64,000 nt of DNA from an uncultured Clostridia bacterium (GCA_948739805.1 CAPYID010000004.1:1658-65657), one strand, 5' to 3'. Positions 23,939 through 24,090 are shown, counted from the first letter of the stretch. Notes: generated from the sequence alone by a model not told the origin. Numbers and translations are program-made.

Positions 23939-23980
23939 TTTAAATTACCTCCTTATTTTAATTATGCTATTGCTTCGCTT

Positions 23981-24010
23981 CTCGGACGCCCAAAGGGCGC
24001 CCCTACATTC
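23981..24010 (+). repeat. REP-like GC hairpin element, type 2, copy a (cggacgcccaaagggcgcccctacat)
   Basis: GC stem plus the conserved 3' flank CGCCCCTACAT. It lies in the groES-groEL spacer. Confidence 0.7.
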
Positions 24011-24040
24011 TTTAATTCTAGTTTAAGTAAATTGCTTGAA

Positions 24041-24070
24041 TGGCGGGCGATTGATAATCGCCCCTACATA
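24041..24070 (+). repeat. REP-like element, type 1, copy b (gcgggcgattgataatcgcccctacat)
   Basis: Perfect stem ggcgatt/aatcgcc plus CCCCTACAT. It lies in the groES-groEL spacer. Confidence 0.7.
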
Positions 24071-24090
24071 TATTTTTCTAATCTTATAAT

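Follow-up and report, generated by a model that had tools for sequence, protein, structure and literature searches.

Introduction

Repetitive extragenic palindromic (REP) sequences of the GTAG-REP superfamily, among them the REPs and bacterial interspersed mosaic elements (BIMEs) of Escherichia coli with the transposase TnpA-REP, are short imperfect palindromes of 20-40 nt, whose stems contain G.T mismatches and which have an unpaired GTAG on the 5' side (Di Nocera et al., 2013, PMC3733652). The copies are dispersed and mostly extragenic, mainly between unidirectional genes and occasionally in frame inside genes; they stand singly, head to tail or as inverted dimers, and are accompanied by a transposase of the HUH-Y1 type. 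Doublets are frequent in REP families, not obligatory, and the only groups in which the 2013 survey detected GTAG repeats were Proteobacteria, Cyanobacteria, Chloroflexi and the PVC group (PMC3733652). REP-associated tyrosine transposases (RAYTs), which belong to the IS200/IS605 superfamily, recognise GTAG and the hairpin on single-stranded DNA (PMC6006769, PMC3733652). In the REPIN-RAYT systems of Pseudomonas and Enterobacteria (REPIN, REP doublet forming hairpins) the REPs form inverted doublets of about 100 nt, the RAYTs are single genes among housekeeping genes, and the REP type matches the RAYT (Bertels and Rainey, 2011, PMC3116915; Bertels et al., 2017, PMC5581495). RAYT group 1 occurs in Clostridia, tied to flanking 16-mers that are only modestly repeated (Bertels et al., 2017, PMC5581495). 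Here we describe two GTAG-headed hairpins in the groES-groEL spacer of an uncultured Clostridia bacterium and the repeat family to which they belong. The spacer lies on a stretch of 64,000 nt (GCA_948739805.1 CAPYID010000004.1:1658-65657), hereafter called the window, in which positions are counted from the first letter.

The family has all of the properties listed above for the GTAG-REP superfamily. It differs from the repeats of the 2013 survey in residing in Clostridia, i.e., Bacillota, and from classical REPs, which are often species-specific, in that one stem variant is exactly conserved across genomes of 25-65% G+C. Likewise, the RAYTs found here carry the REP inside the open reading frame (ORF), instead of or besides being flanked by it as in classical systems. 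The three properties given for the REPIN-RAYT systems are also shared, the doublets of about 100 nt being seen in related low-GC Clostridia.

Results

Two hairpins of one family in the groES-groEL spacer

Both genes lie on the minus strand, and their ends place the spacer at exactly 152 bp (Table 1), the length given in the initial annotation of the window; the ORF list and the Pfam labels on identical public genes agree with it. The two different REP-like hairpins of that annotation, called types 2 and 1, were also recovered, and either type recurs elsewhere in the window. We refer to them as REP-1 (type 2) and REP-2 (type 1). Both are headed by ATGTAGGGGCG on the transcribed strand. The stem of REP-1 starts 27 nt past the groES stop and comprises 8 bp closed by a 3-nt loop, with predicted free energies of -12.5 kcal/mol as RNA and -8.7 kcal/mol as DNA. 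REP-2 is separated from it by an AU-rich linker of 33 nt and has a stem and a loop of the same lengths, including one G.U (G.T) pair (-15.9 kcal/mol as RNA, -7.8 kcal/mol as DNA); in DNA folding its complement folds less well than the GTAG strand. The homology of the REP-1 tail to REPIN doublets was judged by eye against the window copy at 28327-28355 and five loci of other genomes (L038, L047, L128, L027 and L091; such loci carry L numbers throughout).

Together with six copies elsewhere, the window holds eight members of the family, all of them intergenic, between co-directional genes, and on the minus (sense) strand. The 11-mer ATGTAGGGGCG was counted six times against an expectation of 0.07, and the skeleton GGGGCG-N9-CGYCY five times against 0.00; in a window of 28.6% G+C these counts are far above expectation, and the hairpins are therefore not due to chance. 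Head and stem base are constant (GTAG-GGGCG...CGYCY), with ATGTAG directly 5' of the GGGCG stem in six of the eight copies, while three distal stem pairs covary (ATT/AAT, CCC/GGG, TGC/GCA). This gives the stem subtypes CCC-TTT-GGG (type 1) and ATT-ATC-AAT (type 2), each present in more than one window copy. In several copies there are G.T pairs in the 3' arm; they exist on the GTAG strand only, which for this reason folds better than its complement. The usual window head, ATGTAG, reads as a start codon directly followed by a stop codon (24069-24064, 24008-24003 and four further copies). Most probably this reflects the AT-rich context only, as the base before GTAG varies in other genomes.

The GTAG strand of every copy is the G-rich strand (GC skew of the plus strand, -0.19), which also carries nearly all genes. 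Strand placement and G.T pairs that favour folding of the GTAG strand would both fit a role at the level of DNA, as reported for the REPs and BIMEs of E. coli (sites for gyrase, an IHF-like protein or polymerase, or replication-linked targets or primers), with the groESL position being incidental. If the G-rich strand has the leading-strand sequence, the hairpin strand would be the lagging-strand template, on which enzymes of the IS200/IS605 type act (PMC6006769). Nevertheless, we regard such a role as improbable: no sequence sign of a host-protein site was seen beyond the RAYT signature, and the strand bias is confounded with gene orientation.

Insertion and turnover in related lineages

Identical GroEL or GroES proteins are encoded in eleven independent samples of the species. 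The spacer is identical in ten of them and differs in the eleventh by one single-nucleotide polymorphism, a C-to-T change which turns a G-C pair of the REP-1 stem into G.T (G.U in RNA). A sister lineage, comprising GCA_947575565.1, GCA_949471125.1 and JAAWHY01, shares 95.2% of nucleotides with the window in groEL, 93.3% in groES and 93.2% in proS. Its spacer is 186 bp long and keeps REP-1, and in place of REP-2 it holds a longer GTAG-headed hairpin, designated type 3. The spacers of the two lineages align through AATGTAGGGGC, diverge directly after it and rejoin just before the Shine-Dalgarno sequence. In a third lineage (L018) the contig ends 22 nt past the groES stop (10283-10304), exactly where REP-1 would begin.

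The 14 closest metagenome relatives beyond these lineages, with 80-85% GroEL identity and 27-32% G+C, do not have the REP insert. Nine of them have spacers of 16, 16, 19, 27, 29, 41, 41, 45 and 45 nt, and the spacers of more distant relatives are mostly 14-57 nt. The descriptions of the spacer as longer than usual and as the result of insertion are thus both borne out. The same annotation proposed aligning the spacers of related clostridia to see whether the hairpins are strain-specific, and they are not: the insert is fixed in the eleven samples and partly common to the sister lineage, so that, judged from the aligned spacers, it is specific to the lineage and not to the strain.

Turnover was observed at further sites. 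Among the three lineages, which are 93-95% identical, REP content differs at the groES-groEL, glgP-downstream, scpB-upstream and scpB-proS spacers. Downstream of glgP only the window has a copy, with none in the orthologous spacers of L012 (sister lineage) and L018. Upstream of scpB a degenerate type 2 copy in the window corresponds to a decayed type 1 copy in L018 and to none in L012, and between scpB and proS the window has a type 2 variant where L012 has type 3. Such gains, losses and swaps of REP types at orthologous spacers are therefore those of mobile elements. At groES-groEL, approximately 105 nt of REP material most probably entered a short spacer (about 16-45 nt) in the common ancestor of the species and its closest sister lineages, which makes the insertion a recent one. 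The sister lineage has since swapped the downstream unit for a REP of another type, with the breakpoint right after the shared AATGTAGGGGC head.

The refuting case named for the insertion, an ancient regulatory element, would here mean a non-mobile RNA or operator dedicated to groESL, such as a thermosensor of heat shock or an additional site for HrcA. In its favour, two lineages that diverge by about 5-7% in coding sequence have the same REP-1. However, the same sequences stand at unrelated loci of the window and in over a hundred other genomes, the relatives with 80-85% GroEL identity lack the hairpins, and no Rfam family matches: at gathering thresholds Rfam 15 had no match anywhere in the window, and a search of the spacer alone at E values up to 10 gave only two chance-level matches (E about 9.5). 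A scan for tRNA and tmRNA found none. Recurrence elsewhere and absence in relatives have already largely refuted a dedicated element, which we find hardly credible. Identity of the spacer hairpins with CIRCE, the controlling inverted repeat of chaperone expression, was ruled out separately, since they do not match TTAGCACTC-N9-GAGTGCTAA and the real sites lie upstream of groES.

Occurrence of the family in other genomes

Species-representative genomes were scanned with the 20-mer AGGGGCGATTATYAATCGCC of REP-1, from which the GT of the head was deliberately left off. More than 120 stretches were among the matches listed, some of them inside RAYT genes; the true taxonomic spread is thus at least as wide as given here, and these matches do not include the species of the window. 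The hosts among the matches listed include Faecousia, Oscillospiraceae, Clostridiaceae and Lachnospiraceae metagenome-assembled genomes (MAGs), Acetobacterium paludosum and Sporobacter; a few matching MAGs bear the names of other phyla, perhaps through mis-binning. The local G+C of the matching stretches ranges from 25 to 65%. In nearly all listed stretches GT stands directly before the match and restores GTAG. Many of the listed matches are inverted pairs 50-150 nt apart that fold as long REPIN-like hairpins, others are tandem arrays, and inverted doublets are common in other low-GC Clostridia with the same REP. L046 (62% G+C) has head-to-tail arrays of at least ten REP units at a period of about 31 nt (929-1238, 1869-1976 and 3098-3179), the units alternating between GATT..AATC and GGTT..AACC stems. 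In L022 (ORF 2-7999) and L025 (1260-8000) REP copies lie in frame in giant ORFs and read GAIINRP or RGDYQSP. A full-text literature search with the hairpin sequences returned only chance 9-mer matches in unrelated papers and none to a full hairpin.

Cognate RAYT transposases

ORFs resembling RAYTs were found beside or around the repeats in L046, L023, L135, L137 and L031. Their best match is NCBIfam NF047646, "REP-associated tyrosine transposase", with E values of 1e-16 to 1e-19, which is below the curated cut-off, and they also match Pfam Y1_Tnp. L046 is a textbook REPtron, in which opposed REP arrays flank the RAYT gene on both sides. A protein database search with the L137 protein gave 3189 homologues, to several of which JGI has given the name "REP element-mobilizing transposase RayT". 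With a profile of the family, E. coli TnpA-REP (PDB 4ER8) was matched at an E value of 6e-9, the HUH and Y...NP motifs being aligned.

To these, loci L219-L226 were added, which were picked by the RAYT protein and not by the repeat. In these, the extragenic REPs of a contig share the stem variant carried by its RAYT gene, e.g., GGGGCGGAT...ATCCGCCC in L221/L222 and GGGGCGACC...GGTCGCCC in L223/L224, and the REP inside the RAYT gene of L219 equals REP-2 except in the loop. The RAYT genes at L219, L221/L222, L223/L224, L225 and L226 are tightly packed, sometimes overlapping, in clusters of housekeeping genes (e.g., ilvD-RAYT-leuC; methyltransferase-RAYT-rsmI; peptidase-RAYT-Xaa-Pro peptidase-efp). 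With no room for flanking REPs, they look like domesticated single-copy genes as far as their arrangement tells.

With its GTAG head, its short and imperfect palindromes dispersed outside genes, the inverted doublets of relatives and the HUH-Y1 transposase that goes with it, the family therefore belongs to the GTAG-REP/RAYT kind, and the name REP used in the initial annotation has gained support from the head, the dispersed copies and the transposase of other genomes. We hold with good confidence that the spacer hairpins are GTAG-tagged REPs, two stem subtypes of one family, with the insertion history given above. They would have been mobilised as single-stranded DNA by an HUH-Y1 RAYT, whose catalysis in the genome of the window is presumed from sequence. 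The position of the GTAG strand on the G-rich strand would fit action on the lagging-strand template, in so far as this can be separated from the direction of transcription, with which it is confounded; the exchange of hairpin bodies right after the shared head would fit cleavage and rejoining at GTAG.

Several observations weigh against this explanation. Searches with phmmer and tblastn found no RAYT gene or pseudogene in the 64-kb window or in the related and sister contigs checked, and only the octapeptides encoded by the REPs match RAYT. Unlike REPIN-RAYT systems, the lineage of the window shows only single or head-to-tail units, with no inverted doublet (REPIN or BIME) among the eight copies, and all have one orientation, while relatives show the inverted doublets typical of active mobilisation. 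REP-1 and its tail differ at one position between window and sister lineage, against about 12-16% at flanking spacer and synonymous sites; this low divergence could hint at constraint, although with two lineages and 26-47 nt it is not statistically distinguishable from neutrality. Finally, five of the 14 relatives have spacers of 115-364 nt with other, unrelated inserts, which points either to tolerance of inserts or to selection for structure. Among these inserts are an inverted repeat resembling a miniature inverted-repeat transposable element (L143) and further pairs of G+C-rich hairpins (L144, L145 and L148). From these comparisons the groES-groEL spacer seems to be a recurrent landing site.

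The flanks of REP-1 are not the remnant of a RAYT gene, the similarity being confined to GRLIIAPT and the rest having stop codons. The homologues P0023 and P0110, which looked like low-GC sequences, come from genomes of 43-47% G+C and are not the organism's own RAYT.

REP pairs inside RAYT genes

The RAYT ORFs of the family tied to these REPs contain the REP twice, in inverted orientation, about 165-210 nt apart and flanking the HUH motif. Nucleotide sequences confirm the intragenic REPs for L135, L137, L219 and L221-L226 and, as regards the downstream copy alone, for L023; the upstream copy of L137 is degenerate (GTAAAAGCG...). The upstream copy is read in sense as V-G-A-xxx-R-P and the downstream copy in antisense as G-R-xxx-A-P-T. 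Across 45 aligned homologues of about 55-65% identity, hardly any change is seen in either peptide motif. The variable tripeptides come in the pairs IIN/LII, ILN/LRI, PIG/PMG, TIG/PMV, SIA/AML, RIA/AMR and DII/IIS, as one hairpin predicts. Among the 93 proteins with both motifs, 80 are stem-consistent (shuffled pairs: mean 30.7, maximum 42), and the same holds for 32 of 39 distinct pair types (mean 7.9, maximum 16). In the upstream motif the variable codons 1 and 3 can be reverse complements in 92 of the 93 proteins. When translated in the same way, the window REPs read VGAIINRP (type 2) and VGAPFGRP (type 1). Compared with E. coli TnpA-REP, the downstream motif falls in a 7-residue insertion after HUH and the upstream motif before the aligned core.

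These patterns suggest that the RAYT motifs are old in-frame REP insertions into loops, which have been kept matched to the REP population of the genome. No description of an intragenic REP pair was found in the searchable literature, which covers part of the published work. The closest comparison is with the Rickettsia palindromic elements and intragenic REPs (cited in PMC3733652), which are in-frame palindromic repeats in coding genes, like those of the RAYT genes and of the L022 and L025 ORFs. In contrast to the Rickettsia elements, it is the transposase gene itself that hosts the repeats here, both copies hardly vary across a family of more than 3000 proteins, and their amino acids covary according to the hairpin.

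Transcription of the spacer and possible effects on groESL mRNA

Upstream of groES there is a good sigma-A-type promoter (TTGACA 24489-24484, 17-nt spacing, TATTAT 24466-24461), which is accompanied by two CIRCE-like operators, one at 24502-24476 with TTAGCACTT-N9-AAGTGCTAA and one at 24459-24433. By its sequence this is the standard HrcA-controlled arrangement. Within the spacer a consensus scan gave no promoter-like site on the gene strand, a terminator scan gave no terminator on that strand, and neither hairpin is followed by a T run. The only plausible promoter being upstream of groES and the spacer having neither promoter nor terminator, both hairpins are therefore probably part of the CIRCE-controlled bicistronic groESL mRNA. 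The co-transcription stated in the initial annotation is upheld on these grounds as a reasonable inference. The long hairpin past groEL (Table 1) probably marks the 3' end of the transcript.

Being G+C-rich stem-loops directly past groES, the REPs could be taken for an intrinsic terminator or attenuator, by which groEL would be transcribed less than groES. We give this very little credence, as the U tract is missing (REP-1 is followed by GCCAUUCAAGC and REP-2 by GAGAAGCGAAG) and the scan called nothing on the gene strand. Moreover, cells need GroEL in excess over GroES subunits, and for that reason attenuation at this place would be counter-productive. As stable stem-loops without U tracts in an HrcA-controlled mRNA, the REPs would rather be tolerated passengers that do not terminate transcription and act at most as exonuclease barriers, REP-1 against 3'-5' decay of the groES segment and REP-2, in case the linker is cut, at the end of a groEL fragment.

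REPs stabilise upstream mRNA in E. coli, as in malE-malF, where a stable REP hairpin similarly lies in a polycistronic mRNA just downstream of a cistron. What is expected of such a stabiliser, a stable hairpin in a polycistronic transcript downstream of a cistron, is found here, given the probable co-transcription. An effect on the stability of groESL mRNA is plausible on the folding predictions. In its strongest form, the REP pair would be a co-opted mRNA module, kept by selection to uncouple the fates of the two cistrons and so to change the GroES:GroEL ratio. In favour of this, both hairpins are stable and predicted to be within the transcript, and the sister lineage, too, has two hairpins in a row, although its second one is another element. 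Every copy in the window is oriented in sense, several of them inside operons such as groESL and spoIIIAC-AD, and the groES-groEL spacer has repeatedly gained structured inserts in related lineages. On the other hand, a spacer of 16-45 nt suffices for most relatives, the sense orientation is inseparable from replication-strand bias because nearly every gene of the window is on the same strand, and the conservation of REP-1 has the statistical limit given above. We consider selection for such a module unlikely. In its presumed route RNase Y or J would cut the linker, REP-1 would block 3'-5' exonucleases and so shield the groES segment, and REP-2 could cap the 5' end of the groEL fragment against 5'-3' decay by RNase J. 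RNA decay by RNase Y and J in Firmicutes differs from that of E. coli. In Agrobacterium tumefaciens the groESL mRNA is reportedly cleaved between the cistrons; a similar differential stability of the segments would result, although no REP elements are involved there. For the altered groES and groEL expression or stability put forward in the initial annotation, a neutral passenger is at least as likely.

In E. coli, REPs reportedly also control translation near stop codons within a range of roughly 15 nt, and the REP-1 stem, at 27 nt, is beyond it. The copy at 28355-28327 has an extended stem that begins only about 11 nt past the scpB stop (28367), which we take to be within the range of the E. 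coli REP effects on translation termination.

Other features of the window

Another kind of G+C-rich double hairpin, GGCTCCCTTATCTAAGGGAGCTGTCACGCAGTGACTGAGGG, stands just upstream of spoIIIAA at 42400-42475 on the minus strand. It resembles sequences that come after REPs in L030, L052 and L076, and may thus represent a further repeat family with a wide distribution in Clostridia. Further isolated G+C-rich intergenic palindromes lie at 5010-5050 (minus strand), 2715-2750 (minus strand) and 8620-8650; the one at about 5026-5045 also starts with GTGTAG. By their sequence they may be further GTAG-tagged repeat types. The window also contains a collagen-like BclA-type gene with G-x-y repeats (52238-53305, minus strand) and a complete spoIIIAA-AE operon (38877-42432, minus strand), which together indicate a spore-forming clostridial organism. 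Proteins neighbouring these genes carry dockerin and SH3 domains. The public contigs that match the window are all metagenomes or MAGs.

Table 1. Coordinates of the groESL features and REP copies in the window, and of RAYT genes with internal REPs at other loci.
Feature	Position	Strand	Remarks
groES (Cpn10), 93 aa	24091..24372	-	ORF list; identical protein labelled PF00166 in public contigs
groEL (Cpn60), 543 aa	22307..23938	-	ORF list; identical protein labelled PF00118 in public contigs
groES-groEL spacer, 152 bp	23939..24090	-	about 47 nt ancestral-like and about 105 nt inserted REP material, by comparison with relatives
REP-1, ATGTAGGGGCGATTATCAATCGCCCG	24044..24069	-	GTAG head 24067-24064; stem 24063-24056 / 24052-24045
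REP-1 tail, CCATTCAAGCAATTTACTTAA	24023..24043	-	homologous to left part of spacer in full REPIN doublets of other low-GC Clostridia
REP-2, ATGTAGGGGCGCCCTTTGGGCGTCCG	23983..24008	-	GTAG head 24006-24003; stem 24002-23995 / 23991-23984
groEL Shine-Dalgarno sequence, AAGGAGG	23948..23954	-	intact; also kept in sister lineage
groESL control region	24433..24502	-	sigma-A-type promoter and two CIRCE-like operators
Long G+C-rich hairpin, 34 nt past groEL stop	22232..22273	-	no clear U tract; not called by terminator scan
Type 2 variant REP, GTGCAGGGGCGATTATTAATCGCCCGCAC	28327..28355	-	between scpB and proS
Degenerate type 2 REP	29000..29025	-	upstream of scpB; folding lost
REP-like copy, degenerate head, CCAAGGGGCGAGAGATTTCTCGTCT	33613..33640	-	after glgP
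Type 2 REP	40524..40549	-	between spoIIIAC and spoIIIAD
REP with compensated stem, GGGGCGTGC-ATT-GCACGTCT	43581..43606	-	
Second type 1 REP	46273..46298	-	identical to REP-2
RAYT gene with internal REP (downstream copy only)	L023:6555-7070		
RAYT gene with internal REP	L135:2126-2743		
RAYT gene with internal REP	L137:6041-6547		
RAYT gene with internal REP	L219:9388-9867		
RAYT gene with internal REP	L221:8444-8926		
RAYT gene with internal REP	L223:10001-10570		
RAYT gene with internal REP	L225:10001-10510		
RAYT gene with internal REP	L226:10001-10495		

Discussion

For groESL itself the outcome is of limited weight: through a pair of mobile hairpins, the spacer of an essential and tightly regulated operon has become three times as long, with the ribosome binding site left undamaged. 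It makes the spacer a natural test case for a possible tuning of cistron ratios by REPs in Firmicutes, with their different RNA decay. As for the element, GTAG-REPs are hereby newly extended to Clostridia and Firmicutes, which is a known kind of element and no new mechanism, and the reach of the GTAG-REP/RAYT association now includes Clostridia with many gut and rumen MAGs. The repeats also have a practical side, since they break metagenome assemblies, as in L018, where the contig ends exactly at the REP.

The REPs embedded in the RAYT genes may matter more than the finding in the spacer. Taken together, the observations can be read as an undescribed REP superfamily common across Clostridia, with "self-labelled" RAYTs that carry their own cognate inverted REP pair in the ORF, and with window units which are strand-fixed in operons and are perhaps RNA stability elements. 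We offer this joint reading tentatively and with somewhat more doubt than belief. If the embedded pair is new, it offers a direct way to study how the transposase and the specificity of its REP keep in step over long evolutionary times. Self-labelled RAYTs, if true, would mean a hard-wired co-evolution of transposase and REP, possibly by autoregulation or by templated renewal of the REP type, and would explain how one REP sequence has stayed unchanged across genomes of 25-65% G+C.

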